Shown here: positions 1,119 to 64,000 of the stretch, in pieces
Layout: every line of letters starts with the position of its first letter
How positions within the stretch are numbered: position 1 is the first letter of the stretch
Source of the DNA: Candidatus Omnitrophota bacterium
GTDB lineage: Bacteria; Omnitrophota; Gorgyraeia; JABMRG01; JAFGKX01
Assembly: GCA_043797125.1 (NCBI GenBank)
Contig: JAZDPX010000006.1
Location: 70,921 to 134,920 of the forward strand
Direction: 5' to 3'
DNA: 64,000 nt
Notes under the pieces: model-generated
The model's database searches: none
Seen by the model: the letters and a program-made list of their open reading frames with translations, nothing else
What the model was told of the DNA's origin: nothing
Program-made: the position numbers and the translations under genes

Positions 1119-1708
1119 TGCCTCGATGAATAAGTTTCCAATACAATATTTACTCCCGCAACCGCCGGAGCATTAATATCGGTGGAAGCCTGTTGAGATT
1201 CCCATCTTTGCGCTTGAGGCTGCGGGCCCGTAGCCTCGAAGCTAATGCTTTTTATCTCAATGCGCGGTTTCGCATTTTCGATTATTTCTACAAATTTACC
1301 AAGTTGATCATAGGTGCATTCTAACTGCATCGTTGTGGAAAATACTACATATTTATCTGCGCCGTACTCTCTTGTTGAACTTATAGACACAACCTTCACC
1401 TTCGACTCCGATGCCAGCTTTGATAGTTGCCTCCTGATTGCATCAGCATCTTTGCTTTGAAGAACGATATCTTCATAACCCTTACTTATACTGCCTAACT
1501 TGCTTATTTCTTCGCGTAGGTTATTTTTTGTCGTCTGTTCCTGGCACTGTTTATTATACTGCGCCACATTATTAGCTCCCTTTTGATATATGCCCTTATA
1601 ACATATAAAAAGTGCCAACACTAAAACAATGCCGCCAATTATATAGTCTCTTTGTTTTTGATCAATCGCGCTAAGAAATTCAAGAATTTTCATTTTTCCC
1701 CGCCGCAT
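1115..1708 (-). CDS. pilO: Pilus assembly protein PilO-like (related to GspM)
   Basis: 197 aa with one N-terminal TM helix (IIGGIVLVLALFICY), a coiled-coil, and then a periplasmic domain. The start overlaps the upstream pilM/N gene by 19 bp. Confidence 0.55.
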   Translation of the reverse strand: MRRGKMKILEFLSAIDQKQRDYIIGGIVLVLALFICYKGIYQKGANNVAQYNKQCQEQTTKNNLREEISKLGSISKGYEDIVLQSKDADAIRRQLSKLASESKVKVVSISSTREYGADKYVVFSTTMQLECTYDQLGKFVEIIENAKPRIEIKSISFEATGPQPQAQRWESQQASTDINAPAVAGVNIVLETYSSRQ

Positions 1709-3204
1709 TGAATTGTGTAATTTGTTACCTCATATGAAGCTGTATTGTATGAGCTAACATTTTCTTTCCTAATATCCCCGAGCTTGCAACTACTAAATCC
1801 CTGCATAAACAGCTTATCCTGTTTAAGCGTTTCTAAAAATTTATTTACAGCGTCTATCTGGTTTGTGCCTTCCTGAAAAAATGCCTTTCCTTTAAGCAGC
1901 ATTGTGATTTCAGCCTCAAAAAGATTCTCTGCCCTGACCATATTAATCCATACGCCTTGAGGCAAATCCGCGGCAATGCGATTCAGTTTATCTGTTAAAA
2001 ATATCTTTTTTGTAATCAATGATTTTAAAAACTCGATTGTTTTTGTTTCTTTGTCCTTTAATTGCAAAAGCCCGTCAATTCCAAGATTCCCAGTCTGCGC
2101 AGGCAGGGTCCTTGCTTTATCCATTACTGCGTTTAAGCGCGTCTTGGCGGAGATAACTGTTCCAATGCTGTAAAAAAGCGTAAGTAAAATAAGCGCTGCC
2201 GCAATGCCGGCTGCAACAAAAAGCTGCCTGCTTAACTTGAACTCTCTAACTCTTGTTTTAGGAGGCAGAATATTTACCGAATACACATCCTTTCCTAAGC
2301 CGACCATTGCCGCCCCTGCGGCAATAATCGCGCCGAGTGAATGAACCTTTTCGCCTTTAATTACTTTACTAAAATCCACTGTCTCTATAGCCATATTAAG
2401 GTCCTCTGCCAACTTTTTTCTTAAATCAGAGGCATCCTCTTTTGCGCATATGATTAATTTCTTAATTTCTTTTGACGCGGGTTTTCTCTTATAATAATCA
2501 AATGATAACCTCATCTCGCTGACTAATTTCTCTATAAGGGCGTCTTTGTCTTTGGGTATCGCAATACCCCTGTTTATGGTGGGGCAATTTTCTTCGATGA
2601 TGCTTATGCTTGCCACATCCTCCGCGACGCTAAGCTGCAGCAGGGCTATTGTATCCTTTTCTTTAAAAAACCTCTTGTTCTGATTAATAACCCTCAACAA
2701 GGCAAACGGAACAATATCCATTATGCCTGTTTTTAGCCCCGCGTCGGAAAATAGTTTTAATTCTGATTCTACGTCGGCTTTTTGCGCGGCAACAAAAAAT
2801 ACGCGCATTGTCTTGTGCTCTCTATTGGTATCTATTACTCTAAAATCCGAGTAAATATTCTCTATCTTAAAAGGAACATATTTTCTGGCCTCAAAATTAA
2901 TTGCCTGCCCTTGCTCTGATTTAGGCAAAAGAGGCATATCAAAATGCCTGATCATCACCCCTTCTTCAGACAGAACAGAATAAACGATATCAGAGCTTAT
3001 CTTAAGCTTGCCAATGGAGGATTTTATCGCTGCGACTATCTTGGCGCGCTGTTTTTGGTCGGAAGAAGGAACCTGTTCGTTTTGCGGCAGAGTAATATCC
3101 TCTCTTATGTGATCCACCAAGAAGGGCTTGTTAATAGCTCCTGTAACTGCCGCCACATCCACAAAATTTTTGCCTACATATATGCCGATGCCTTTGTTAG
3201 CCAT
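1690..3204 (-). CDS. pilM: PilM (actin-like ATPase fold) fused to PilN (TM + periplasmic) pilus assembly protein
   Basis: 504 aa. The N-terminal ~330 aa is a PilM/FtsA-like domain (GIGIYVGKNFVDVAAV...). It is followed by a TM helix (LFVAAGIAAALILLTLFYSIG) and a PilN-like C-terminal region. Confidence 0.6.
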   Translation of the reverse strand: MANKGIGIYVGKNFVDVAAVTGAINKPFLVDHIREDITLPQNEQVPSSDQKQRAKIVAAIKSSIGKLKISSDIVYSVLSEEGVMIRHFDMPLLPKSEQGQAINFEARKYVPFKIENIYSDFRVIDTNREHKTMRVFFVAAQKADVESELKLFSDAGLKTGIMDIVPFALLRVINQNKRFFKEKDTIALLQLSVAEDVASISIIEENCPTINRGIAIPKDKDALIEKLVSEMRLSFDYYKRKPASKEIKKLIICAKEDASDLRKKLAEDLNMAIETVDFSKVIKGEKVHSLGAIIAAGAAMVGLGKDVYSVNILPPKTRVREFKLSRQLFVAAGIAAALILLTLFYSIGTVISAKTRLNAVMDKARTLPAQTGNLGIDGLLQLKDKETKTIEFLKSLITKKIFLTDKLNRIAADLPQGVWINMVRAENLFEAEITMLLKGKAFFQEGTNQIDAVNKFLETLKQDKLFMQGFSSCKLGDIRKENVSSYNTASYEVTNYTIQCGGEK

Positions 3205-9977: not shown

Positions 9978-10874
9978 TTAAAAGTGTTCATATCCTTCAG
10001 GCTCAAGCCGGCTTTCCTTGCCCCTTCTATCAACCAAAACCATCCTTCCTGCATTATTCGTTATCTCGCCTATCGCGGTTATCTTTATTTTTCTTTTTTT
10101 GGAACTTGAAAGCAGCCTTTTGGCGTCTTTTTTCGCTGTCGTAAAAAGGAGCTCAAACTGCTCGCCTGTTGTAAGCGCTCTTTTTACGGATGCGCCTTCA
10201 TAAGGAATTAAAGACTCGTAAATTTTAGCGCCTTTTTTGCTTTCAGATAAAATGCGCCATAGGTCAAGCGCAAGTGAGTCAGATATATCTATCATGGAAT
10301 TTATCTTAAAATTATCCGCCAAAAACTGCGCTTCTTTAATCCTGGGAGAAAAACCTAAATCATTAGGATAAGGCCTTAAAGCCCCTGTTATAAATATCAC
10401 ATCTTGATCCTTCGCGCCGCTGCGAAGGGCAAGCCTTTTCTTGGATACTTCACCGATTAGAGTAACGGATAAAACCATTTTTTTTGAAAAATTTGTATCG
10501 CCGCCTACTATGGATATGCCGAATTCAGAAGCTGTCTTATGCATGCTAAGATAGAGCCTTTTAATAAAATCGACACTAATGTCCTTTGGCAGGCCTACTG
10601 AAACAAGCGCCCATTTTGCCTTGCCGGCGCATGCTGCTATATCGCTTATGTTCACCGCCATTGCCTTATGGCCTATCTGTTCCGGGGATGCCTTATCCAG
10701 CCTAAAATGCGCATCTTCAATTATCATATCGGTAGTAACAAGAAGATATTTGTCTTTAGTATATTTAAGCACGGCGCAGTCATCGCCAATGCCTTTAAAC
10801 ACCGAAGGGGGAGTCTTTGTAAGTGCGGCTATTTTATTTATTAGAGCTATTTCGCCTATGTCGCGTAGTTTCAT
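9978..10874 (-). CDS. thiL: Thiamine-monophosphate kinase
   Basis: The AIR-synthase-related fold shows in ...GDDCAVL...LLVTTDMIIEDAHF. Confidence 0.75.
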   Translation of the reverse strand: MKLRDIGEIALINKIAALTKTPPSVFKGIGDDCAVLKYTKDKYLLVTTDMIIEDAHFRLDKASPEQIGHKAMAVNISDIAACAGKAKWALVSVGLPKDISVDFIKRLYLSMHKTASEFGISIVGGDTNFSKKMVLSVTLIGEVSKKRLALRSGAKDQDVIFITGALRPYPNDLGFSPRIKEAQFLADNFKINSMIDISDSLALDLWRILSESKKGAKIYESLIPYEGASVKRALTTGEQFELLFTTAKKDAKRLLSSSKKRKIKITAIGEITNNAGRMVLVDRRGKESRLEPEGYEHF

Positions 10875-11907
10875 GTTTTAATCTGTTTAAACTTTCTCGA
10901 TACGGCTTCCTGTACGTCCCCTTCTCCGTAACAAACGCTGTAACCAATTCCCCCGGCGTAACATCAAATGCCGGATTATATACTTTTACATTTTTCGGCG
11001 CTATATAAACAGGCCCGACCTTTCTTACTTCATCTGGGCCTCTCTGTTCTATCGGAATATTTTTACCGTCGCTTAAGCTAAAATCGAAGCTTGAGCTCGG
11101 GGCACAGACATAAAACGGTATTTTATGAAATTGCCCCAGCAGCGCTAAATTATAAGTGCCTATCTTATTTGCAAAATCGCCGTTTGCAGTTATTCTGTCT
11201 GCGCCGACTATTATCTTGCTTACCTTACGCGCCTTCATCAGGGAAGCTGCCATATTATCGCAGATTAACGTAACATCAATTCCCTTCCTCATAAGCTCCC
11301 ATGTAGTGAGCCTGGCTCCCTGCAAAAGCGGCCTTGTTTCATCCGCGTATACCTTTATTCTCTTGCCCCTTTTTTTTGCCGCGTAAATAACCGATAGCGC
11401 AGTCCCGTCGCCTGCTGTGGCCAATGCCCCGGCATTGCAGTGGGTAAGCACAACATCTTTATTCTTTAAAAGCCTTTGGCCGAATTCACCGATTTTTCTG
11501 CACATGGCCTCGTCCTGCGAATGAATCCATTTTGCTTCCTTAAGTAAAATGGAACATATTTGCTCTACGGATTTATTTTTATTTTTACAGGCTTTTGCCT
11601 TTATCCTTTCCATGGCCCAGGACAGATTCACGGCTGTGGGCCGCGCAGCTTTCATCTTTTCTACTATTTCATACAATTTCTTAAAAAAATCTTTTCTTTT
11701 CTTAAATTTCAAATTTCGGATTGATACATACACTCCGTATGCGGCGCAAACTCCAATGGCCGGCGCGCCTCTGACTGAAAGCGCCTTTATAGCGCGCGTT
11801 ACGTCTTTTAAGGACCCCAAGGTTTTATAGGTAGTGTTGTTTGGAAGCCTGCGCTGGTCTATAATCTTTAGTTTACCGTTTCTATATTCTACTGTTTTTA
11901 CTCTCAT
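10834..11907 (-). CDS. mtnA: Methylthioribose-1-phosphate isomerase, or an eIF-2B-family isomerase
   Basis: ...GKLKIIDQRRLP...RGAPAIGVCAAYG... is the eIF-2B alpha/beta/delta family signature. Confidence 0.7.
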   Translation of the reverse strand: MRVKTVEYRNGKLKIIDQRRLPNNTTYKTLGSLKDVTRAIKALSVRGAPAIGVCAAYGVYVSIRNLKFKKRKDFFKKLYEIVEKMKAARPTAVNLSWAMERIKAKACKNKNKSVEQICSILLKEAKWIHSQDEAMCRKIGEFGQRLLKNKDVVLTHCNAGALATAGDGTALSVIYAAKKRGKRIKVYADETRPLLQGARLTTWELMRKGIDVTLICDNMAASLMKARKVSKIIVGADRITANGDFANKIGTYNLALLGQFHKIPFYVCAPSSSFDFSLSDGKNIPIEQRGPDEVRKVGPVYIAPKNVKVYNPAFDVTPGELVTAFVTEKGTYRKPYRESLNRLKHETTRHRRNSSNK

Positions 11908-49081: not shown

Positions 49082-49531
49082 TTATATGTTTTTACAGTAT
49101 TTGGAAAATTCTTTCTCGAGCTTACCTTTAACATAAACTACGAAAGACCTGGTTTCTTTAAGCAGCTCATTGAATTCTGCTTCACTGACAACATCTGTGT
49201 GGTCATAAAACGCATTGCCTCTTTTTTGTCTTGCGTCATCGAATAACATAATTATGCCTTTTATATAAGAATCTTCCATATTCCTCAATGCTTCCCATGT
49301 CATGTAATGATAGCTCTCTCTCGGGGCTTTATATCCCCGGCAAGCCAAAAGGCATTCTGCGGCAGCTAATGCGGCCTGATATGTTGAAATAAATCTTAAA
49401 TCCAAGGAAATGTTTGTCTGCGCCGCGTCTTTTAAGCATCTTTTTATCACATCAAAACGATCCCCTACTTCTTCCGGGTTTGTTTTATGTTTTTTTAGTT
49501 TTCCGAACCTGTATAAATCCTCTAAACTCAT
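49082..49531 (-). CDS. HEPN domain protein, partner of the MNT
   Basis: 149 aa, alpha-helical, with a candidate Rx6H motif (RGNAFYDH). It overlaps the 3' end of the MNT gene by 47 bp. Confidence 0.5.
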   Translation of the reverse strand: MSLEDLYRFGKLKKHKTNPEEVGDRFDVIKRCLKDAAQTNISLDLRFISTYQAALAAAECLLACRGYKAPRESYHYMTWEALRNMEDSYIKGIIMLFDDARQKRGNAFYDHTDVVSEAEFNELLKETRSFVVYVKGKLEKEFSKYCKNI

Positions 49532-50099
49532 CCTCGGTTCCTTTCAGAAATATTTTAGGCTCTTTTATTATGCTGCTTATAAAATGATTTTTGTCCTTCA
49601 GTTTTTTTAAAAATTCGCCTTCGGTATAAATAATGCTGTTTATTTCTCTGCCTACTGCGGATTGGTAGTTATACAAATCGGATTTTATATCTTTTAAACC
49701 TGCTTCCGCTATTATCACAATATCTATATCGCTTAAGCCTCTCTCCTGGCCTTTCGCAAACGATCCATATATAAAAGCAAATTGAATCTGCTTGTGTTTG
49801 GCCGCAATGCTTCTGAGCGCGCCTTCTATGCTGACAGTTTTTCTTATCACGCCCTTAATCTCCATATATAGCGGATAATCCAAGTTTAGTTTATAAAGCT
49901 TTATCCTCCCAAGCATTCTATGCGTAAATAGGCCTCCGGATTCAAGGGCCGCCATTTCCCTTCTAATGTTGCCTACCGAATAACCCGACAGCTTTTCAAT
50001 CTGCCTTAGATAATACTCTTTCTCGGGATCGTTAAAAAACAACTCCAGCATGGCGACTCTTGTTTTAGACTTGGTAATGTGGAATATCTCTTTTCCCAT
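49485..50099 (-). CDS. wHTH plus minimal nucleotidyltransferase (MNT)
   Basis: An N-terminal winged-helix is followed by ...FAFIYGSFAKGQERGLSDIDIVII, which is a GSx(n)...DxD Pol-beta NTase motif. A perfect palindrome GACTACAATTGTAGTC lies 14 bp upstream of the start. Confidence 0.65.
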   Translation of the reverse strand: MGKEIFHITKSKTRVAMLELFFNDPEKEYYLRQIEKLSGYSVGNIRREMAALESGGLFTHRMLGRIKLYKLNLDYPLYMEIKGVIRKTVSIEGALRSIAAKHKQIQFAFIYGSFAKGQERGLSDIDIVIIAEAGLKDIKSDLYNYQSAVGREINSIIYTEGEFLKKLKDKNHFISSIIKEPKIFLKGTEDEFRGFIQVRKTKKT

Positions 50100-50194: not shown

Positions 50195-50232
50195 AACAAC
50201 GATTCGGTAAACGGTACCGGTTTTACGCTGCC
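50195..50232. repeat. Family J shared 3' element (…CGATTCGGTAAACGGTACCGGTTTTACGC[T/C]GCC) at the end of the 998-aa gene
   Basis: The 30-bp core is identical to 53421-53450. It contains the CGGTACCG palindrome and supplies the …AA* stop. Confidence 0.7.
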
Positions 50233-53219
50233 TGCGCTATTACATTTTCATTACGGCTGTTTTTGTTGAGCTTCTCCGTCTGGTTATAATATATAAGCGG
50301 ATCCTTAAGATATTTCGTATAATATTCCGGGCCAAACTTTACAGGTTCTGCCGGTTCTAAAATATCATTAATAAGCTGCTCTATAAATTGCGGATTGGGA
50401 ATCTTGTCGCCGTTTGCGGCAATAAATTTTATAATTTTTCCCATTTCACTATTTATAATGCTTCCGTGTTTTTTCATTACAAAATGCACAACCATATGAT
50501 AGTACCAATCAGCGTACATGTAGCGGATGGGCAAATAAACCGTAAACCATATATAATGAATGAGCGCGCAATACCTCGGGTATTTTCTAAGTTCAGCCGG
50601 TGCGGGAAATTTTTTCACTTCGTCAAGATTATCCCATTGCAGCTTTTTTAGGGCTTCGAGCTCAGGGACATCGAGGCTGCCGAACATTTCTTTATATTTT
50701 TCTGGTTCATATTTTTTTACATCCGATATCATATATAAAAGCTCATCTATATTCATGTCGGCAAAGTAATCAGCCTTACTTCTGTATCCGACAAGGTCCT
50801 CCAAACGGTGGGCGATTAAAAACTTTTTTATTAACTCGAGCGGCATTTGTTCGCCTTTGGAATTCCGGGGATATTTTGCCAGCCATTCTGGGGTATAAAG
50901 CATATTTTCAATAAATCTTGCCATACCCTCCTTCATTCTTGTGTCGCACGAAGCAAACGTCGGCCCCTCTCTGTAATCAGAATAGAGATGGTCAATCGCG
51001 TGTCCCGACTCATGAAACATCACCCATGCGGTTAACCGACCACCTGAGGCAAGCGTAATTATAATTCGCGTATCTTTCTCGCCAAGCGCGCAGCATACTC
51101 CGGGATGTTTAAACCTCCCTGTCTCCGTTTTTCTTGAGTCTGAGGGGTTTGTATCAAAGTATATCATTTCCGCGTCTAAACCGAGGTCTTTTAAAGTTTC
51201 CAGAAACATACCCATAAGTTTGTTCGCGGGAAGATATTCATCCACCTCTTTATAAACATCTCGCAGGGCCCAACTTGTGTTCCAGGGCGCCGGTTCAAGC
51301 TCAGCACTTTCTTTTTTAAGAAGATCGGCAATCTCTTGGTCAGCTCGCTTTATGTCATCTTTCAAATCAACTTTCATCTGCTTCATAAAACGCTTATACT
51401 CATCGAAATCAGCTCTTTGAACTCGAGCTTGTAATTGATGATAATTGGTAAGAGACGGGATATTGTACTTTTCAGCCACCAACTTGGTTGCCTCATTTTG
51501 CAAATCTTTCACTTGTTCTTTTCGCGGTTCAAATGCCTCTGCGCGCCACATCCAAAGCATATATGCCCATTCTCTCAACTCTTCTTTAGGTTCAGTTTCG
51601 AATATCTCAAGTATGTTATTATCGCCTACCGGCCTTGCTTTAAATGCCGTGGATATCACATTATATATCGCGTCTTTCTTTTTCCAATCTTTTTCCTCAT
51701 TTAATATACTAAGAACTTTTTTATCATCCGCGATTTCCTTTTTCCCCTTGTAGATATTCGATATTGATGTATACAATTTTTGCTTTTTTTTTGCATCGTT
51801 ATTGCTTGCAAGCGTCTCGCTGGCCTCATCATTATCCACGACTGTCCCGCTAGCCCGGGATAAGAGCAGATATGCTTCTCTTTTTTTGATTTTGTCTTTT
51901 GCCTTATCCAATACATTGAATGCCATAGAATTGTTTTTAATATATTTGCCTCTGAAAAATGTCGATATATACATATATGCTTTGCACTTTTTCACTTTAT
52001 CAGGGTCATCTGATAACAAAGAAAGCGTGTCTTTCTTATATATGGCCTTCCCATAGAGCTTGTATAAAAAATCATATATCTTTCCTAGTTCTTTCCTCCT
52101 GCCCTCTTTTTGCAACTCCTCCATCGCCTGGTTTGCCGCGACAGGACTATTAATTCTTTTAGTGCCCGTAAGCCAGGATATAATTTTATACATTTCCCAT
52201 TTTTTTATCTCGCTGGTTTCGGCTGTTAACAGCTTTTTAACATCGTTGTCGTCATAAATAAGCGGGCCGCCATAAATCATAGGGAAACTCATATAATCTG
52301 CATCCATTGTGTTTTTAAACGTCGATACTGGAGGGCTTTCCTCAACCTGGCTTAGCAAAAGCGAGTCGAAAAGATCCTCATACTTTCTTTTAAGATAATA
52401 TTCGCTAACCAGCTTTGAATACGCTAAGACCTTTTTAGATAAGGTTTCGTCTGTAACTATTTTTAATATTTCCTTTCCGATTTCAGCGTATTTCTTAGCG
52501 GTAGCCTGCGCCAACTCTTTATCACAAGTAAACATGGGCTGTTCTTCGTATAACCTGCTTTCACGCCAGGTTTCACCCCAGTTGGCACCGAAACGCTTTC
52601 TTTGAAGGAGCATCTCCTTTTCTTCCTCGCTCAATGTGGCTAAATATTTTTCATACTCCTGTTTACTTCCTTCAAATTCCCCGATAGCGCTCATTAACCG
52701 AAACTGAACAATACCATGCTCTATACCTTTATTGTATAATGGCAGGTAAGCCTCATCAAAAAATTTGCGCGCGGATTTTTCCAAATCTCTTTTCTTGAGT
52801 ATGCCGTTTGGAAATATATCTTTAATGCACTGGGCATATTGCAGGATATCTTGCTGTTTTTCTTTTTCCTTTATTGCTCTGCTCTTAAAAAACTTCGACA
52901 CATTGCTGTTTTTTAGTGATATTTCTTGCTTTAATGGCTCGCCCTTTTTTCTCGGCAGTTTCGACAGCGCGACAATCAACTCCTGCGCCAAGGCAATATT
53001 CTCCGCTTTTTGCTGGTCGGGCGCCTCTTGGCGCATATCATCATATTTCTTTTTCAGCATATCATATGTTATAGAATCTTTGATAAACGATATGGGCCGC
53101 AAAGCGGAAGAATCGCTGTTTGTTCTGGTGCATATTTGCGACTTTTGGAAAGCTAGCTGGTTGGATAAAAAGACAGTTGCTAATAATAATGATGATATTC
53201 TCTTTATAAGTATTTTCAT
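50223..53219 (-). CDS. Large exported HExxH protein (putative gluzincin-type metallopeptidase); LRP motif family
   Basis: 998 aa with a signal peptide followed by ...SDSSALRPISF. The HExxH site is MFHESGHAIDHLY with a downstream Glu (MKEGMARF). The C-terminal ...QAA* and the stop are contributed by the family-J repeat. Confidence 0.55.
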   Translation of the reverse strand: MKILIKRISSLLLATVFLSNQLAFQKSQICTRTNSDSSALRPISFIKDSITYDMLKKKYDDMRQEAPDQQKAENIALAQELIVALSKLPRKKGEPLKQEISLKNSNVSKFFKSRAIKEKEKQQDILQYAQCIKDIFPNGILKKRDLEKSARKFFDEAYLPLYNKGIEHGIVQFRLMSAIGEFEGSKQEYEKYLATLSEEEKEMLLQRKRFGANWGETWRESRLYEEQPMFTCDKELAQATAKKYAEIGKEILKIVTDETLSKKVLAYSKLVSEYYLKRKYEDLFDSLLLSQVEESPPVSTFKNTMDADYMSFPMIYGGPLIYDDNDVKKLLTAETSEIKKWEMYKIISWLTGTKRINSPVAANQAMEELQKEGRRKELGKIYDFLYKLYGKAIYKKDTLSLLSDDPDKVKKCKAYMYISTFFRGKYIKNNSMAFNVLDKAKDKIKKREAYLLLSRASGTVVDNDEASETLASNNDAKKKQKLYTSISNIYKGKKEIADDKKVLSILNEEKDWKKKDAIYNVISTAFKARPVGDNNILEIFETEPKEELREWAYMLWMWRAEAFEPRKEQVKDLQNEATKLVAEKYNIPSLTNYHQLQARVQRADFDEYKRFMKQMKVDLKDDIKRADQEIADLLKKESAELEPAPWNTSWALRDVYKEVDEYLPANKLMGMFLETLKDLGLDAEMIYFDTNPSDSRKTETGRFKHPGVCCALGEKDTRIIITLASGGRLTAWVMFHESGHAIDHLYSDYREGPTFASCDTRMKEGMARFIENMLYTPEWLAKYPRNSKGEQMPLELIKKFLIAHRLEDLVGYRSKADYFADMNIDELLYMISDVKKYEPEKYKEMFGSLDVPELEALKKLQWDNLDEVKKFPAPAELRKYPRYCALIHYIWFTVYLPIRYMYADWYYHMVVHFVMKKHGSIINSEMGKIIKFIAANGDKIPNPQFIEQLINDILEPAEPVKFGPEYYTKYLKDPLIYYNQTEKLNKNSRNENVIAQAA

Positions 53220-56299: not shown

Positions 56300-56860
56300 T
56301 TATTTCGGTATAACGGTTTTTGACACGGTCATGGAGCAAACAGCAAGGCTTGAATCTTTAGATTTCGGGGTTATCCGGTATTTTTCAACCGTAAGCAAGC
56401 TGTCCGAGCTCTCTATATTATACATAAAATCTACCATCTGCTCCATCTGCGCTTCGCAGTTTAAATTTAACACGTACCTCATAGCTCCTTCCTGAAGCTC
56501 CAGTTTGCCCGGCTTCATATCAACAAGATAAACGGAAGATTTATTCGCTATCTTCTCTACCTCTTTTAAGAAAGACGCTATTGCCTCTTCCTCTGACTCT
56601 GCCTTGCTGAAAAAAGTGGAATACTTTTGCATCTTTGTCCCTATTTTGTCCTTTTGCGATAATATATGCAAATTCCTTTTGATGCCTGACTGCCTGTCTT
56701 GAATCTGTTCGTTAAGCGATTTTATTTTTGATAAAATCGGATTTATTATAAGCCTGTCTAAAAGCGCTAATGAAATAATAATGGCTGCCCCGTAAAAAAT
56801 AATCTTTTCTCTTTTTGATAAACGCGACAGATAGTTATAAATATTCTGCACTTTAAACAT
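56300..56860 (-). CDS. gspM: GspM/PilO-like assembly-platform protein
   Basis: 186 aa with a single N-terminal TM helix and a periplasmic alpha/beta domain; it follows the gspL-like gene. Confidence 0.5.
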   Translation of the reverse strand: MFKVQNIYNYLSRLSKREKIIFYGAAIIISLALLDRLIINPILSKIKSLNEQIQDRQSGIKRNLHILSQKDKIGTKMQKYSTFFSKAESEEEAIASFLKEVEKIANKSSVYLVDMKPGKLELQEGAMRYVLNLNCEAQMEQMVDFMYNIESSDSLLTVEKYRITPKSKDSSLAVCSMTVSKTVIPK

Positions 56861-58341
56861 TAGCTGCCTTTTTCCTTATTTATTAAACTGATTATTTCAA
56901 AATCTGCCACATCTACATCGCCTTTTTTTCTTTTTGTGGTATACCTATTCTTTACATCCTTAAAATATCGTGATTTTTCCATCTCCTCAACAAAGGAAAA
57001 GACCGCTGCCATGGAATCTGCCGTGCCCTTTATGGAAAATATATCTGTTATGTCAAATTTTATATCTGTCAGCTGCACATTTTCAGGAAGGACACTATAA
57101 AGGTCAGCTAAAACCTCTAAGGAATAACCGCGTTTGTAAAGATAAGCTTTTGTTGCCTGGACCTTTAAAAAGGAGTTTTCCAGATTTTGCACATCCGGAA
57201 GCTGCGATTGGTATTTTTCATCCAGCTTGCTTAAGTAAGCGCTTTGAAAATAAATTTTGCTTGTAAGCATAATGCAAACAAAAACAAAGATGACCAACGC
57301 GAGAAAGCCGGTTTTAATAATCTCTTTGCTTTTCTCCTCAAAGGCCCTTTTTAATTTTACTTCCTCCGGAACAAGCGCAAGCCTTAATTCGTTTTGCACA
57401 AAAAGCACGGATATAACATCCAAAAAAGATACGGCGCTGCCCGGGCTTGTGGATTTTAACACTTCCTGCGATAATGGCAGATTTTTAAGATAATCAAACG
57501 TCCTCACGGGCTTCTGCATGCTGCTTGTAAAAATTGACTCCAAATTCTTAACCCGTTCAAAAGCGCCTGTTAGGATAATACCGTCGGGCTTTTGCTCAAT
57601 ATCTTCAGCCTCATATGCCTCCAATGAACTTTTTACCTCATCAACAAATCTATTCTGCGGCGCTAAAATTTGGCTTGCTAAGCTCTCTATTTCTGTAGGA
57701 ATGCTTCTTACATATATTACCTTGCCTTTAAATACAACGGTAAAATCCGTAAAACCTTCATCCACATGGACTATGCAGGTAGGCATGGCCTTGTTCTCAA
57801 GTTTCATCATTTTAGAAACAAACTTGCTTACACTCTCTGGTGAAAAAATAATCTGCTCCAGTTTAAAGCCTGCCTTGTTCAATATCGCGGAGTGCCTTTT
57901 TATAACATCGCGCGACACAATAACCAGCAACACTTTGGTATAGCTGCGTTTGAAAGTGCCGAGCTCTACATAATCAACAACTATCTCCTCGCGTGAATAG
58001 GGAGTGTGCCTTCCGGCCTGAAGGTTTATTATTTCTTTTATCTCTGACGGGTCAAGAGACGGTATTTCTATGTTTTTGGTTATGCTTAAATGCGACGGTA
58101 TCATACTTATGATATCCGTAGGCCTTAAGCCCTGCTCATTTAAAGAGGCCTTGATAGCCTTAGAGATATCCTCGTCGCGCAGGCCCCTTATGTTTTTGCT
58201 TGAGAAACCTATTCTTTTAACCGCATGCCCGACAACCTGCGCGTGGGCAAGTTTTAAATTGTTGCCGCTAAAATCCACGGAAACAATCACCCTGCTGTTT
58301 AAGGCGCCTAACAATTTAATTTGCGCTAAGATTCCTGCCAA
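56860..58341 (-). CDS. gspL: GspL-like (PilM-fold cytoplasmic domain, TM helix, periplasmic domain) assembly-platform protein
   Basis: 493 aa with an actin-like N-domain, a TM helix (GFLALVIFVFVCIMLTS) and a periplasmic C-terminal region. It is a paralog of the architecture at 1690-3204. Confidence 0.55.
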   Translation of the reverse strand: MAGILAQIKLLGALNSRVIVSVDFSGNNLKLAHAQVVGHAVKRIGFSSKNIRGLRDEDISKAIKASLNEQGLRPTDIISMIPSHLSITKNIEIPSLDPSEIKEIINLQAGRHTPYSREEIVVDYVELGTFKRSYTKVLLVIVSRDVIKRHSAILNKAGFKLEQIIFSPESVSKFVSKMMKLENKAMPTCIVHVDEGFTDFTVVFKGKVIYVRSIPTEIESLASQILAPQNRFVDEVKSSLEAYEAEDIEQKPDGIILTGAFERVKNLESIFTSSMQKPVRTFDYLKNLPLSQEVLKSTSPGSAVSFLDVISVLFVQNELRLALVPEEVKLKRAFEEKSKEIIKTGFLALVIFVFVCIMLTSKIYFQSAYLSKLDEKYQSQLPDVQNLENSFLKVQATKAYLYKRGYSLEVLADLYSVLPENVQLTDIKFDITDIFSIKGTADSMAAVFSFVEEMEKSRYFKDVKNRYTTKRKKGDVDVADFEIISLINKEKGS

Positions 58342-59348
58342 TATAAAACCTTTCCTTTTTTATCAACTACGCATAAAATGCGCATTTTGCTCTTTTTATT
58401 ATTCAGCTTGGCGTTGCATTGAATCGTAAAATTTTCAGAATACACAACTAAATCCTTTTCAGAAACCGCGGCGGTAAGCTGCGCTGCCTCAAAATCCCCG
58501 AGATTAAAGACCTGGCTTAAAGTCAGCACTATCCCTTCGCTAGATTCAAAGACAAAGTCATCCTCGGTCCCCTCCAGCTTATCCGCGCCGCAGCGAAAAG
58601 CCAGAATCTTTTGCACGACATCATTATTTAAACCCAATGAATATAATACCGCTGCGGGAGCGGTATTTATATTCATTTTACCTTCCCCGTAAACAGTGAT
58701 ATAATCGCGCACCCTGTCAAATATTTCGTTGGTCATACCTTTGACCAGCAAGACCTCTTCAAGCGCCTCAAAATCGCCGTCCTTCGCCTCATAGGGATGC
58801 GAAAGATACCTGTAGTAAGAATCCTCGGCGCTGCCTATGGGTATAGATAGGTTTCCGTCGCCGTCCTGCCAGTCAATAATAGAAGCGGCTAATTCTTGGG
58901 CTTGAGTTTCCTCAAGGCCGAGCACACTTTTAAAAAGCTTCTGTATCATTGGCCTGGACGCCTTGTTTAAATTTATCTTTCTCTCCTCGTCAATAAGCCC
59001 GTATCTTGTTTTTATGGAACGCGTCTTTTTATCAACATAATTGTACGAGATAGAAAAAGTCCCGTCGCCAAGCCTTACGTTTTTAAACTGTGCCGCATTA
59101 TCGCTCCAGTCGCTTCTCAGACAATCGTATGAGGCCGCCTCTGCCCCTTCAGAATTACGGTCTGCCCTTATTTTCGAGTGCGCGTATTTTACACCGGCCT
59201 CGGCTATAGCCCGCAACTTGGCTTTGTCATTAAGCCTATAGACAAGGGTGGTTCTTTGCCTCACCTGGTAGCCTAAAATCAAGGCAAACGCGGATAAAAG
59301 AGAAAGCGCCCAGAGCGTAACCAACAATATGCTTGCTGTCTTTTTCAT
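58326..59348 (-). CDS. gspK: Minor pseudopilin GspK
   Basis: The N-terminus reads ...SILLVTLWALSLLSAFALIL; the size and position after gspJ fit. Confidence 0.6.
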   Translation of the reverse strand: MKKTASILLVTLWALSLLSAFALILGYQVRQRTTLVYRLNDKAKLRAIAEAGVKYAHSKIRADRNSEGAEAASYDCLRSDWSDNAAQFKNVRLGDGTFSISYNYVDKKTRSIKTRYGLIDEERKINLNKASRPMIQKLFKSVLGLEETQAQELAASIIDWQDGDGNLSIPIGSAEDSYYRYLSHPYEAKDGDFEALEEVLLVKGMTNEIFDRVRDYITVYGEGKMNINTAPAAVLYSLGLNNDVVQKILAFRCGADKLEGTEDDFVFESSEGIVLTLSQVFNLGDFEAAQLTAAVSEKDLVVYSENFTIQCNAKLNNKKSKMRILCVVDKKGKVLYWQES

Positions 59349-59352
59349 AAGA

Positions 59353-59949
59353 TCATCCGCCCGCCGGAATGTTCACCGTTCTTGTGAGCTTTTCCTCTGT
59401 AGCGCCGTTTTTAAGCTCTAATATTATCCTGACAGCCAGAGGCAGCTTTTCGTCGCGCCAGTCTTGCGCCCAGTTATACTTTTTCGCTGTCTCGTCGTAA
59501 AAATAATATTCAAACTTCAGATACTTAACTTTGGCAATGGCCTGTTTTGAACTTGAGCCCTTTCTCTGATAAGCTAAAGAGTAATCAGCCTCTTGCCTGT
59601 TAAGGATGTTTTTATAAGCATCATAGGAATAGGTTATCCTGCCCACACTCCTTTTGCCTAAGGCCGGGCTGTTAACAAGCGCGGCAAATTCAAGGCCCTG
59701 GCTTTTGCCCTTAAAATCAATGCCTGTAAATTTGAAACTTGTTTTTATGTCCGAGGAAAATCTCTCAAAAAATATCACTAAGTCCTCTTCCTCAACGGGC
59801 TTATTCAGCTTGTGCCATATCTTAAGCCCGCTGCTTAAGGTGCTGTATATTGCCGTAGAAATAACAGATAATATTATTGTGACAATAAGCATCTCCATCA
59901 AGGTCATGCCAGAACTTGTGACTTTATTATGCCTTTTCTCTGTTCTCAT
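59353..59949 (-). CDS. gspJ: Minor pseudopilin GspJ-like
   Basis: Prepilin-type N-terminus SSGMTLMEMLIVTIIL (G|MTLxE). Confidence 0.6.
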   Translation of the reverse strand: MRTEKRHNKVTSSGMTLMEMLIVTIILSVISTAIYSTLSSGLKIWHKLNKPVEEEDLVIFFERFSSDIKTSFKFTGIDFKGKSQGLEFAALVNSPALGKRSVGRITYSYDAYKNILNRQEADYSLAYQRKGSSSKQAIAKVKYLKFEYYFYDETAKKYNWAQDWRDEKLPLAVRIILELKNGATEEKLTRTVNIPAGG

Positions 59950-60349
59950 ACGCTATGTAAGTAGTCCTTGTAACGCTTATGCCTCTTTGCGCTTCTTGCC
60001 AAAAAACAGATAAATTAATTTTATACAACCCTTGGTTTGCGTCTATGGCAGAACTTGACAGCTCCCACTGAAAATATTTTCCCTTTTTTTCAAACCCCCC
60101 TGTTTCGCCGACTCCCTCCAAAGTCCCGGCCTGATTTAAATAATCTTCGGCCTGCCAGGCCTTTTCATCCATCCATGGTAGGACGCTTAAATAATGTATA
60201 GAATAATTATACAGGTCAAAAAATAAAAAATACGCCTCGTGAATCAAAACAGCGCCCATCGATAGAATTGCTGTTGTTACAATCACCTCCAAGAGGGTAA
60301 AACCAGCTATGAATTGCTTACACCTTTTACTGCCAATTCGCGATATCAT
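59927..60349 (-). CDS. gspI: Minor pseudopilin GspI-like
   Basis: Prepilin N-terminus AGFTLLEVIVTTAIL. Confidence 0.6.
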   Translation of the reverse strand: MISRIGSKRCKQFIAGFTLLEVIVTTAILSMGAVLIHEAYFLFFDLYNYSIHYLSVLPWMDEKAWQAEDYLNQAGTLEGVGETGGFEKKGKYFQWELSSSAIDANQGLYKINLSVFWQEAQRGISVTRTTYIAYENREKA

Positions 60350-60752
60350 CGGAGCTTTCTGTTCCGTCTTTGCCTAACGAATACAAATCATAATCCTGCC
60401 TATTTTCTCCGGGAGATTTGTACTCATATCTTTTCCCCCACGGGTCTAACGGCTCTTTCTCTAAATACGGGCCATTCCATTGCTGCGCGGACGGCGGCCT
60501 CTTAAGCAAAGCTTCCAACCCTTCGTCTGTGCTGGGAAAATTACCATTATCCAGTTCGTAAATTTTTAACGCTGTGGCAATATTTGTATTTATGTCCGCT
60601 CTGGCTACGGCGACGCGCGCCTGCTCGCCCCGGCCTGTAAGCCTCGGCATTACCATCGCCACCAGCGCTCCAATAATAATAACTACAAGCATTAGTTCAA
60701 TTAAGGTAAATGCCCTAAGCTCTAAACCATAAACTCTAAATTGTTTTTTCAT
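60327..60752 (-). CDS. gspG: Major pseudopilin GspG
   Basis: ...RAFTLIELMLVVIIIGALV... with the C-terminal DPWGKRYEYKSPG...YDLYSLGKDG signature of GspG. Confidence 0.85.
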   Translation of the reverse strand: MKKQFRVYGLELRAFTLIELMLVVIIIGALVAMVMPRLTGRGEQARVAVARADINTNIATALKIYELDNGNFPSTDEGLEALLKRPPSAQQWNGPYLEKEPLDPWGKRYEYKSPGENRQDYDLYSLGKDGTESSDDIANWQ

Positions 60753-61687
60753 TTTTCCTCCCCGTGCCTGTACGAACGCAAAATACCGGTTATATATTCT
60801 TCGCTCATATCGCTGTCATCCTTTATGCTTGCCTCAAGGTATTTTCTCCAGCCTTCAGCAAGCTCTTCCTTATTGCGTATATACGATGGATAGGCAAAAC
60901 TTAGCGCTTCTTCAGCGGTTTTTCCGTCGCGCAGCTGCCTGCAGAATTCCGAAAACATTTCCGCGCCATATCTTTCTATTAAAAAATCTACCAAAGAAAA
61001 AGACCCTATATAAAATACGTCAACAAGCGCTTCTGTATCCAAAAACAGCACTCCGTCCTCGCCCTCTCTTGTTACTGCCGGGCGTATAAATAATCTATTT
61101 TCGCGCTTAAAGTGGGCGCTGTTAATACGCATTAAATCTTTTATTGAAAGCATCTTCCCTTTTTTATGCAACTGGGTGGATATATGCCTTCTTTTATCCC
61201 TTCTTAATTCTTCTGCCCATTGCGCTACGCCCTCATACAGCCAAAGCGGCACCTTACCATTAGCCTGGCCAAGATAGCCCAAGAAAATCATGTGAGCTAT
61301 TTCGTGCGGAAGGATTGATTCAGTAAATTCGGCGTTTAAATTATATCCCGCTATTTCTTTTATATCATAAAAAGCGACGCCGTCAGACCATTGCGGCTGG
61401 TTTGTCCCTTTTATATAAGAGTCGTGATCAGGATAAATGGTAATCTTCACCCTGCTGTTCCACGACCAGAATTTCGAATATTTCGCGTATCCAAACTCAT
61501 CGCCGATATTTCTGTAATAATACTCTGCCTTATCCAATACTTCTTTTGCAAAATTTTTATCGCCGGTGAAACTTACCTTAAAATGCTCGCTTGCGAGCTC
61601 TTCCTGAAAAGCAAGCGCCGTCGCGCTTACGGCAAACAAAACAATCCCCACTAAAAAAAATAAAAATCCCTTAATTTTTTTATACAT
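60749..61687 (-). CDS. Exported HExxH protein (peptidase MA-like) embedded between gspF and gspG
   Basis: A signal peptide is followed by ...ILPHEIAHMIFLGYLG...LWLYEGVAQWAEE, i.e. HExxH plus a downstream Glu. Confidence 0.55.
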   Translation of the reverse strand: MYKKIKGFLFFLVGIVLFAVSATALAFQEELASEHFKVSFTGDKNFAKEVLDKAEYYYRNIGDEFGYAKYSKFWSWNSRVKITIYPDHDSYIKGTNQPQWSDGVAFYDIKEIAGYNLNAEFTESILPHEIAHMIFLGYLGQANGKVPLWLYEGVAQWAEELRRDKRRHISTQLHKKGKMLSIKDLMRINSAHFKRENRLFIRPAVTREGEDGVLFLDTEALVDVFYIGSFSLVDFLIERYGAEMFSEFCRQLRDGKTAEEALSFAYPSYIRNKEELAEGWRKYLEASIKDDSDMSEEYITGILRSYRHGEEK

Positions 61688-61772: not shown

Positions 61773-63017
61773 TTAATGCGCCATCACATTTATTTCAAAC
61801 ACAGGCAGCAATATCGCCATCACGATAAATCCGACAATCAGGCCCATCACTAAAATCATCAAAGGTTCAAGCAGCGAAACCATCAGCCTTATTGCCTCAT
61901 CCGTATCGCGTTCATAGTAATCCGCTACTTCTGCAAAGGCCTCGTGTAGTTTGCCGGATTCTTCGCCGACGATTACGAGACTGCTCATAAAAGAAGGTAT
62001 GACCTTCGAGCCTTTCAGGCTTTTGCCGAAAGAGCCGCCTGCTTCCAGTTCTTTGCGGCTTGAGCTTAATTTTGTTTTTATAATCTCGTTTCCCAAAACA
62101 GGAATAGATATATCAATGGCCTTAAGTACCGGGGTACCGCTTTTTATAAGAAGCTCCATGGTCCTGCCAAAACAGGCAAGTTCCGCCTTAAGCGCAAATT
62201 TTCCATATATGGGCATGTGCAATTTAAGCATGCTTAATAAAAGCCTCCCCGGCCTTGTTTTGTTCTGGGCCTTAATAATTAAAATAAAAGCTGCTAAAAA
62301 CAAGGCTATTGCCGGCCAGCCCTGTTGAAGATAGGAGCTTGTGGAAATTAAAATACGCGTCGGTAAAGGAAGCTTTTGGCCCATATTGGCAAAAATTCCC
62401 ATAAGCCTCGGCATTACATATGTGAGCATAAAAATCACCGTAGAAAGCCCTACAAGAGCCATAAGAACCGGGTATGCCATTGCCATGCGGAAACGCGAAA
62501 CAATATCTTCTTGCTGCGAACGGTATTCAAAAACACGCATAAGCGCGTCGTGCAAAGAACCGCTGTCTTCTCCCGCGCGTATAACAGCTCCATAAATAGA
62601 AGGAAAAACCTTTGGATAACGCTCAAGGGTAGATGAAAAGGTGGCGCCGTCCTTTATGGCATTGTGCATATCCAAAAGCAAGGCCCTTAGTTTAAGGTTG
62701 TCGGTTTGTTCTGAAATTATATTAAGCCCGTCTAATATAGGGACCCCTGATTTTAATAAGCTTGCCAATTGCCTGCTAAAAATGGTAATCTCGCGATTTC
62801 TTATCCTGCCTGATGGCAGTTTAAAAGAAACAGGCTTACGATAAGCGTTATGATAAACAGGCGCTATAATTTCCTCAGCGGTAATTTCTTCTATAGACAC
62901 GGGCAGATAACCCATCCGGCTGATTTTATCAATGGCCTCTGCTTCTGACTGGGCATGTATCCGGTCTTCTCTTACATCCTGCGGCCCTTTTTTAGCTTTG
63001 TATTTATATATCGGCAT
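61773..63017 (-). CDS. gspF: Type II secretion / type IV pilus platform protein GspF/PilC
   Basis: Two T2SSF repeats and a polytopic membrane pattern; 414 aa. Confidence 0.85.
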   Translation of the reverse strand: MPIYKYKAKKGPQDVREDRIHAQSEAEAIDKISRMGYLPVSIEEITAEEIIAPVYHNAYRKPVSFKLPSGRIRNREITIFSRQLASLLKSGVPILDGLNIISEQTDNLKLRALLLDMHNAIKDGATFSSTLERYPKVFPSIYGAVIRAGEDSGSLHDALMRVFEYRSQQEDIVSRFRMAMAYPVLMALVGLSTVIFMLTYVMPRLMGIFANMGQKLPLPTRILISTSSYLQQGWPAIALFLAAFILIIKAQNKTRPGRLLLSMLKLHMPIYGKFALKAELACFGRTMELLIKSGTPVLKAIDISIPVLGNEIIKTKLSSSRKELEAGGSFGKSLKGSKVIPSFMSSLVIVGEESGKLHEAFAEVADYYERDTDEAIRLMVSLLEPLMILVMGLIVGFIVMAILLPVFEINVMAH

Positions 63018-63039: not shown

Positions 63040-63185
63040 CATAGCTGAAGTTAGAGTATCAGATGATCAGATTACCAGAACAGGATTATCAGAGTATCAG
63101 AGTATCAGATTATCAGAATTTTATCTGATACTCTGATTCTCTGATGTTCTCGTTCTGATACTCTGATTCTCTGATGTTCTAATAC
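63040..63185. repeat. ATCAGA/TCTGAT-rich direct and inverted repeat region between gspE and gspF
   Basis: ATCAGAGTATCAGAGTATCAGATTATCAGAATTTTATCTGATACTCTGATTCTCTGATGTTCT...GATACTCTGATTCTCTGATGTTCT. It contains a dyad and a 24-bp direct duplication. Confidence 0.7.
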
Positions 63186-64000
63186 CTATATCTTATCCTT
63201 GCACAGCCTTCTTAACCTAACCCTCTCTGAAGCGCTTATATCCATAAAACATACACCAATCTCATATGTTGCCAGCATTGTCTTTTCCAATATCCTCACC
63301 GCTCTCCCTAAACATTCCATTGGTTTTGAGCCGTCAGGCAGTTTCAGGCTTAACTCCAAGAATGAACCTATATCCAACGGTTCATTCGATACAAATGACA
63401 TGCCGCCGGCGCTTATATTTTTTGTAACATTAGCGTAAGTATAGGCGTCCTTGCGGTCGCGCAGATCCTGTTTAGACCTATAAACCTTATAAGTAAAATC
63501 TATATTATAATTTATGCGCACGTAGTCCCTTCTATCAGAAAAATCTTCTTCAGCTTCTTCTTTTTTAACAACGCCTTCGGCTAAGGGTTTAGGAATTTCA
63601 GCTGCGGGCCCACCAAGCGCTATTTCTTCAATTTGAGTCACCCTCATAACTTCTTCGGGCGTGGTTATACCGTCAATAACCTTACGCCAGCCGTCCTGAC
63701 GAAGCGTGCGCATTCCCGAAGCTAAAGCTGTCTTTTTAATCTCGCCGGCAGCAGCCCTTCTTACGATTAAATCTTTTATCTTATCGTCTATCACCAAAAT
63801 TTCATATATAGCGGTCCTGCCGAAAAACCCGGTGAAATTACATTCGTTGCAGCCCTTGCCCCTGTATATCTTGATATCCTTTTCAAGTTTTATTCCTGAT
63901 TCGCCGCTTATCTGCTTTATAAGCTCCTTGCTGTGCTGGCTATCTTCGTATTTGCAATGCGGGCATATAACCCTTACCAAGCGTTGTGCTATGAAAGCCT
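63186..64000 (-). CDS. gspE: GspE/PilB-family secretion ATPase, C-terminal part (the gene continues beyond the window end), with a fused C-terminal PilZ domain
   Basis: The reading frame stays open to the window edge (…AFIAQRLVRVICPHCK...). The C-terminal Zn motif CPHCK...GCNECNFTGFFGRTAIYEIL is typical of GspE. It is followed by DRRDYVRINY ... NISAGGMSF, which is the RxxxR + D/NxSxxG PilZ signature. Confidence 0.7.
   Translation of the reverse strand, partial: AFIAQRLVRVICPHCKYEDSQHSKELIKQISGESGIKLEKDIKIYRGKGCNECNFTGFFGRTAIYEILVIDDKIKDLIVRRAAAGEIKKTALASGMRTLRQDGWRKVIDGITTPEEVMRVTQIEEIALGGPAAEIPKPLAEGVVKKEEAEEDFSDRRDYVRINYNIDFTYKVYRSKQDLRDRKDAYTYANVTKNISAGGMSFVSNEPLDIGSFLELSLKLPDGSKPMECLGRAVRILEKTMLATYEIGVCFMDISASERVRLRRLCKDKI

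Follow-up and report, generated by a model that had tools for sequence, protein, structure and literature searches.

A gene at the end of a 64,000-nucleotide (nt) stretch of DNA from a Candidatus Omnitrophota bacterium (the whole stretch is hereafter the window) encodes a motor ATPase of the GspE/PilB family that carries a C-terminal PilZ domain. We designate this gene gspE-PilZ. The bacteria of the phylum Omnitrophota are uncultivated, very small, and perhaps dependent on hosts, and surface machines of this kind are considered central to how they live. Sequence comparison and structure prediction make it likely that this ATPase, the hexameric assembly motor of a machine resembling a type II secretion system (T2SS), is directly gated by cyclic di-GMP (c-di-GMP) through the fused canonical PilZ domain. 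An initial annotation made from the sequence alone had described a GspE-type ATPase with a tetracysteine motif and a PilZ tail; the strings that it quoted were found in the translation, the families PF00437 (T2SSE) and PF07238 (PilZ) both matched, and the gene was located on the minus strand, which that annotation had not given. The open reading frame (ORF; 63186..>64000, minus strand) is cut at its 5′ end by the window edge, and its last 270 amino acids (aa) are visible. The fragment has the following features:

63615..64000, minus strand: C-terminal ATPase lobe (CTE) of the GspE/PilB family, fragment residues 1–128 (Pfam, NCBIfam, and AlphaFold2 [AF2])
63840..63965, minus strand: tetracysteine zinc-binding motif CPHC...CNEC (CPHCK...GCNEC), from the translation
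63534..63614, minus strand: acidic linker of variable length, predicted to be disordered, residues 129–155 (predicted local distance difference test [pLDDT] and alignment)
63189..63533, minus strand: canonical PilZ domain, a β-barrel followed by a C-terminal helix, residues 156–270 (Pfam, AF2, and Foldseek)
63516..63533, minus strand: predicted c-di-GMP-binding motif RRxxxR (RRDYVR), from the translation and alignment
63402..63419, minus strand: predicted c-di-GMP-binding motif [D/N]xSxxG (NISAGG), from the translation and alignment
63186-63188, minus strand: stop codon TAG of gspE-PilZ, from the ORF reading

Residues 3–119 of the fragment matched positions 273–370 of the 370-position T2SSE profile PF00437 (E = 4.5e-20), and the best NCBIfam match of the fragment was GspE TIGR02533 (positions 373–486). 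The fragment contains the CxxC...CxxC zinc motif that is typical of GspE/PilB extension ATPases, and the 4 cysteine residues (Cys12, Cys15, Cys50, and Cys53) are invariant among 45 aligned relatives. In the AF2 model of the whole fragment, which was computed with a 45-sequence alignment, the ATPase lobe (pLDDT >90) and the barrel are confident, and residues 133–154 of the linker have a pLDDT below 50. The linker is also gap-rich and without conservation in an alignment of 69 sequences; a disordered linker of variable length fits the expectation for a tethered sensor. PilZ-less relatives of the ATPase end no more than ~8 aa from the position aligned to residue ~121. Measured against these relatives, the extension past the normal GspE C-terminus comprises ~145–150 aa (a linker of ~27 aa and a PilZ domain of ~115 aa), shorter than the ~170 aa that had been estimated initially.

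The initial annotation had named a profile search of the tail against PF07238 as a check of its PilZ assignment. This search matched residues 155–267 to profile positions 1–101 of 102 with E = 4.4e-15 and 56.3 bits, compared with a gathering score of 22.5, which is well outside what chance would give. The AF2 model of the tail alone (pLDDT 92.6, predicted template modeling score [pTM] 0.82) consists of six strands and a C-terminal helix (107–120). A Foldseek comparison of this model with the PDB returned PilZ domains as all of the top matches, many of them in c-di-GMP-bound structures. The best match was MotI/DgrA (5vx6, E = 1.3e-7, TMq 0.74), and TMq values of 0.61–0.70 were obtained for Alg44, YcgR, and PP4397; the PilZ matches besides MotI were Alg44 with c-di-GMP (4rt0, 4rt1), MrkH, YcgR (5y6f), PP4397 (3kyf), and BcsA. 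A profile built from 17 tails matched Bacillus subtilis YpfA/MotI in the PDB (E = 1.3e-4); the tail as a lone query sequence gave no PDB match.

The RxxxR and D/NxSxxG signature flagged in the initial annotation is conserved, position by position, in 64–69 of the 69 aligned sequences (the window, 50 database proteins, and 18 genome loci), which are 36–54% identical to the window over the visible 270 aa. Both arginine residues of the first motif (Arg157 and Arg161) and Gly199 occur in 69/69 sequences, Ser196 in 67/69, and Asn or Asp at position 194 in 64/69. The residue ahead of the first RxxxR arginine is arginine in the window and arginine or lysine in 53 of the 69. Judged from these alignments and the tail model, the PilZ barrel is canonical and selectively maintained, and its ligand binding is predicted.

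The conservation of the motifs also bears on whether the tail could be a ligand-independent interaction adaptor, like the Xanthomonas and Pseudomonas PilZ proteins that act on the PilB N-terminal domain. The founding PilB-acting PilZ proteins bind no c-di-GMP and dock on ND0/ND1 (PMC8389850; 10.1101/814665), and the orthologues of gspE-PilZ retain such an N-terminal domain. However, RxxxR and a portion of the barrel are no longer present in the known adaptors, whereas the motifs here are invariant or nearly so, the tail model is a complete barrel, and the type II and tetrameric Xanthomonas PilZ structures ranked far lower in the fold search. We therefore regard an adaptor of this type as very improbable.

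Distribution and origin of the fusion

A survey of related genomes, as the initial annotation had suggested, covered 18 genomes of GTDB species, 16 metagenome contigs, and ~50 database proteins. The ~50 proteins carry both PF00437 and PF07238, and every one with a named source comes from Omnitrophota or Omnitrophica. The named sources of the full-length orthologues in the genomes and contigs are Omnitrophota or bins of similar placement; taxon labels of metagenome-assembled genomes such as “Planctomycetia” or “Deltaproteobacteria” are the depositors' own and possibly unreliable. With each GTDB species represented by a single genome, 18 loci covered the whole fragment. Complete, uninterrupted ORFs of 701–747 aa were found at 16 of them, and at the remaining two (L011 and L012) the contig stops within the ORF. 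Another 16 loci came from metagenomes, 12 of them with complete ORFs of 701–749 aa. The domain order MshEN (PF05157), T2SSE, and PilZ was the same in 8/8 orthologue ORFs scanned. The orthologues match the whole T2SSE profile (~E 1e-130), for which reason the Walker A and B, Asp, and His boxes and the N2E domain, which in the window protein would fall past the window edge, are presumed to be present in them.

When a neighbour-joining tree was computed from the ATPase region alone, the 17 PilZ-bearing proteins grouped in a single clade, and none of the PilZ-less proteins fell within it. These results are relevant to the possibility that gspE and an independent pilZ gene downstream of it were merged by a frameshift or misassembly; the initial annotation had itself named a frameshift as a refutation. 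Short PilZ-only database entries (110–125 aa) are among the close relatives of the tail, and Omnitrophota commonly have small pilZ genes (10.1101/2023.11.21.568195). By contrast, 34 independent assemblies, which stem from different projects, share this unbroken ORF, the linker is without a stop or frame change, and the PilZ-bearing clade is monophyletic. An artefact is thus effectively refuted. The tree and the alignments indicate a fusion of single origin that has been kept through deep divergence.

Outside this clade, the long matches of the tail have other architectures, namely GAF-HD-PilZ, TPR-PilZN-PilZ, REC-PilZ, and PilZx3-Hsp70. One distant relative of the tail (P0209, 3205 aa) contains 10 PilZ-like stretches. 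Another (P0185, 939 aa) is, according to Pfam, the PilZx3-Hsp70 fusion, which resembles the Myxococcus PilZ-DnaK proteins (PMC10313047).

Proposed gating by c-di-GMP and the MshEN domains

In YcgR, BcsA, Alg44, and PlzD, c-di-GMP orders the RxxxR linker and moves the PilZ domain relative to its partner. By analogy with these proteins, we infer ligand binding and an allosteric route for the fused ATPase, as follows: (i) c-di-GMP would be clamped by the RRxxxR arginines, located where linker and barrel meet, and the NxSxxG strand; (ii) the bound ligand would order or rigidify the linker, and the barrel would be repositioned against the rest of the ATPase; (iii) this shift would alter the ATPase cycle of the hexamer or its engagement with the PilM-PilN or GspF platform; and (iv) the second messenger would in this manner directly gate assembly of the pseudopilus or pilus and, through it, secretion or attachment. 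Work on PP4397 and VCA0042-L135R is reported to show that RRxxxR forms tend toward an intercalated c-di-GMP dimer. Because the window protein has the RRxxxR form, c-di-GMP would probably be bound as such a dimer.

The sign of the regulation is a guess. The PilZ domain fused covalently to BcsA relieves autoinhibition. Together with this precedent, the promotion of assembly by c-di-GMP in all characterised GspE/PilB/MshE cases (PMC5013675, PMC11656802) leads us to favour activation at high c-di-GMP. Conversely, the tail could be a brake or clutch: high c-di-GMP would fold it onto the hexamer or onto the PilM/GspL-binding surface and stop the motor, in the way that YcgR and MotI act on the flagellar motor. 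PilZ proteins of the MotI/YcgR type act as inhibitors; MotI/DgrA 5vx6 is the best PDB match by both profile and structure, with YcgR following it. Likeness of PilZ folds, however, does not predict the sign of regulation, and the GspE/PilB/MshE and BcsA precedents point the other way. We therefore consider a brake rather unlikely, although it deserves more weight than the adaptor discussed above.

Several points weigh against direct gating as proposed here. (i) The N-terminal ~450 aa of the protein and the region upstream of the gene lie beyond the window end. (ii) No relative closer than 54% identity was found in the protein search, 48% in the GTDB genomes, or 48% in the metagenomes, and the full architecture is therefore taken from orthologues. 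(iii) The two-domain AF2 model (pTM 0.49) has no reliable inter-domain geometry, and thus we draw no docking hypothesis from it. (iv) No Secretin match was obtained in the cluster genes, the scanned large ORFs of the window, or the examined parts of loci L001 and L008; a secretin elsewhere in the genome is possible. (v) Scans for GG[DE]EF and HD-GYP found no GGDEF or HD-GYP motif in the 64-kb window, and a window of this size is uninformative in this respect. (vi) MotI, the best structural match, is an inhibitor, so the sign might be opposite to that favoured here.

The initial annotation had contrasted the PilZ tail with the better-known route through an N-terminal MshEN domain. This contrast holds in that the ATPase's own MshEN motif is degenerate in the orthologues; it does not hold in that the MshEN-fold domain (PF05157) is retained at their N-termini and an intact stand-alone MshEN gene often lies upstream. 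The c-di-GMP-binding motif of MshEN is a tandem of the 24-residue sequence RLGxxLLxxGLLxxxxLxxxLxxQ, and we used the relaxed form from the Wang 2016 census (PMC5013675). None of the 17 full-length orthologues matches it. Likewise, none of the 17 passes the 53-position profile NF053729, on which the best orthologue reaches ~35 bits (estimated from the E-value) against a cut-off of 38. Thus, within the orthologue polypeptide, the PilZ domain is the sole intact c-di-GMP module.

A domain swap, in which the PilZ-bearing ATPases would have lost MshEN binding and the PilZ-less ones kept it, was considered and is not supported in this form. The relaxed motif is also missing from 33 of the 34 full-length PilZ-less relatives, and the degeneracy of MshEN is therefore not specific to the fusion clade.

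A stand-alone MshEN gene is located directly upstream of gspE-PilZ at ~60% of the loci (11/17 genomic and 7/12 complete metagenomic loci), with a spacing of −4 to +72 nt. It encodes a protein of 144–158 aa (truncated to 106 aa in L070) with the tandem motif [KR][LI]GEIL..KGLI....L...L.EQ - 5 aa - FLG..LL....I....L..ALSEQ, and 11/11 genomic copies match NF053729 with E = 1e-9 or better. This protein looks like a duplicated, detached N-terminal domain of the ATPase in which the binding motif has been retained. The gene was mapped as follows:

L001 6201-6656 and L008 6171-6644: stand-alone MshEN gene
L002-L005, L007, L009, L010, L012, L014, L066, L069-L071, and L118: further loci with a stand-alone MshEN gene

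The corresponding upstream position falls outside the window; by sequence, the window protein lies nearest to the subclade in which the stand-alone gene is usually present. The residue ahead of RxxxR is arginine or lysine in 8 of 10 loci having the upstream MshEN gene; in the subclade that lacks it (L013 and L015-L018), this residue is for the most part not basic (L, K, S, Q, and S). The two subclades may therefore differ in the stoichiometry of c-di-GMP binding, the numbers being small.

PilZ domains generally bind c-di-GMP ~10-fold more weakly than MshEN (PMC5013675). Tentatively, and with a probability that we consider low, the motor could be under a dual control with two thresholds, in which the upstream stand-alone MshEN would respond with high affinity and the cis PilZ domain with lower affinity, and in which the ATPase's own MshEN, no longer binding, would now be a docking surface for one or both. 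If true, this would be an undescribed regulatory architecture for the motors of T2SSs and type IV pili (T4P), and ultra-small Omnitrophota that depend on hosts or are predatory might use it to gate their attachment to prey or secretion onto it. The combination of a degenerate cis MshEN, an intact trans MshEN, and a cis PilZ domain hints at layered sensing in the relatives, an arrangement more intriguing than the PilZ fusion by itself.

Operon context and other window features

Downstream of gspE-PilZ, the minus strand carries the genes of a T2SS-like machine:

61773..63017, minus strand: gspF/pilC-type platform protein, the next operon gene (Pfam T2SSF, E = 7.5e-53; NCBIfam GspF, 331 bits, below the cut-off of 424)
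60749..61687, minus strand: Peptidase_MA (zincin-like) protein between gspF and gspG (PF13485, E = 2e-14)
60327..60752, minus strand: major pseudopilin GspG (TIGR01710, 143 bits versus a cut-off of 88.85; Pfam T2SSG, E = 1.4e-32)
58326..60349, minus strand: minor pseudopilins, namely an N_methyl protein (140 aa), a GspJ-like protein (198 aa), and GspK (340 aa) (Pfam T2SSJ, N_methyl, and T2SSK_1st)
56300..58341, minus strand: assembly platform, namely a PilM-PilN fusion and a PilO/GspM-like protein (Pfam)

The PilM-PilN fusion (493 aa, 56860-58341; Pfam PilM_2 and PilN) is a GspL analogue. The PilO/GspM-like protein (186 aa) has only weak T2SSM and PilO matches (~E 0.005), and its gene is followed by smpB. 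L001 has its genes in this order too, with a peptidase gene of the same Peptidase_MA family (10151-11095) at the corresponding position. The Peptidase_MA protein may serve the machine as a processing enzyme or be its dedicated substrate. Full-length orthologues of the ATPase score 565–574 on GspE TIGR02533 (cut-off 630) and 546–568 on PilB TIGR02538 (cut-off 676). Both ranges are just under the equivalog cut-offs; accordingly, the protein is assignable to the GspE/PilB family only, and we call the machine T2SS-like, with secretion or a pilus as its output.

A second PilM-like protein (504 aa, 1690-3204, minus strand), close in size to the PilM-PilN fusion, is encoded at the far end of the window and suggests a second pilus or T2SS-like cluster in the same genome.

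On the upstream side, the loci examined have the genes of an F-type ATP synthase (b/delta, alpha, gamma, and beta) directly ahead of the MshEN and gspE-PilZ genes and in the same orientation, and at the loci without a stand-alone MshEN gene the ATP synthase beta gene itself is directly upstream of gspE-PilZ. This linkage of ATP synthase genes to the operon of a secretion motor is unusual and conserved. It was mapped as follows:

L001 1729-6204 and L008 1756-6169: ATP synthase upstream region
L013, L015-L018, and L072-L078: further loci with an ATP synthase upstream region

The intergenic region between gspE-PilZ and gspF (63051-63182) contains ~8 tandem 8-nt units of (A/T)ATCAGAG followed by inverted copies, which together form an imperfect inverted repeat with 60-nt arms. 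As RNA of the gene strand, the repeat has a predicted folding energy of −73 kcal/mol (z = −10.4). One 27-mer occurs twice within it in identical form (at 63124 and 63154), and the (A/T)ATCAGAG motif occurs nowhere else in the window. A search of the hairpin against Rfam gave sub-threshold matches to generic miRNA-like hairpins only and no known family. The gap between gspE-PilZ and gspF is only 5–50 nt in the two orthologous loci checked (L001 and L008). The hairpin may function in processing or attenuation, or it may be a small repeat element.

Elsewhere in the window, overlapping genes for a minimal nucleotidyltransferase (Polbeta/NTP_transf_2) and a HEPN protein (49082-50099, minus strand) have the usual layout of an MNT-HEPN toxin-antitoxin pair. 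Between this pair and a major facilitator superfamily (MFS) transporter gene lies a 998-aa ORF (50223-53219, minus strand), for which Pfam returned no family at E ≤ 0.01.

Comparison with known systems

The initial annotation had regarded the fusion as uncharacterised, and our literature search agrees with this view: a canonical PilZ domain on the C-terminus of GspE or PilB is described in no paper of the searchable literature, direct phrase searches included. The fusion is unmentioned in a 2024 review of PilB cofactors, papers on PilZ diversity, the MshEN paper, a 2023 review of c-di-GMP evolution, and the preprint on Omnitrophota giant genes. The architecture is present in databases through automatic Pfam annotation, and the NCBI names of the proteins are those of generic T2SS/T4P ATPases.

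Two routes of c-di-GMP control are known for this ATPase family. In the first, the messenger acts through the N-terminal MshEN domain (PMC4624772, PMC5013675). The ATPases of this type (Vibrio cholerae MshE, Pseudomonas aeruginosa PA14_29490, Clostridium perfringens PilB2, and Myxococcus xanthus PilB) belong to the same family, with a T2SSE core and a tetracysteine CTE, and have, as here, the c-di-GMP receptor as part of the motor polypeptide. Their receptor, however, is the helical N-terminal MshEN, whereas here it would be a C-terminal PilZ β-barrel, the MshEN being degenerate in the orthologues. In the second route, a non-canonical PilZ protein and FimX act in trans (PMC8389850). The PilB-PilZ-FimX system of Xanthomonas citri, as well as PilZ/PlzR of P. 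aeruginosa, resembles the present case in that a PilZ-fold protein is in physical contact with an extension ATPase and passes the c-di-GMP state on to this motor. The X. citri PilZ is a separate, non-canonical protein that binds no c-di-GMP (the FimX EAL domain does) and docks on the N-terminal domain; here, by contrast, the PilZ domain is covalently fused to the C-terminus and has intact binding motifs.

The same canonical barrel with RxxxR and D/NxSxxG occurs in fused form in BcsA, Alg44, and PilZ-DnaK and in the trans-acting clutches YcgR and MotI/DgrA. The difference lies in the partner, which here is the hexameric ATPase of a T2SS or T4P. The giant-gene loci of Omnitrophota (10.1101/2023.11.21.568195) come from the same phylum and share T2SS-like gspE/gspF genes and many small pilZ genes. 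Such a locus has gspD, rcpC, and a rotamase gene beside the giant genes, in contrast to the present cluster, in which no secretin was detected and which is linked to ATP synthase genes in the orthologues.

Thus, c-di-GMP control of T2SS/T4P ATPases and the fusion of PilZ to output machines are both known, and what is new is this pairing. If the proposed gating is true, the cis C-terminal PilZ domain would be a third, structurally distinct route from the messenger to this ATPase family. A PilZ domain tethered to the face of the hexamer opposite to MshEN would be a clean natural experiment on the allosteric switching of these motors, and for the T2SS-like machines of Omnitrophota it would offer a concrete, testable point of access to their regulation.

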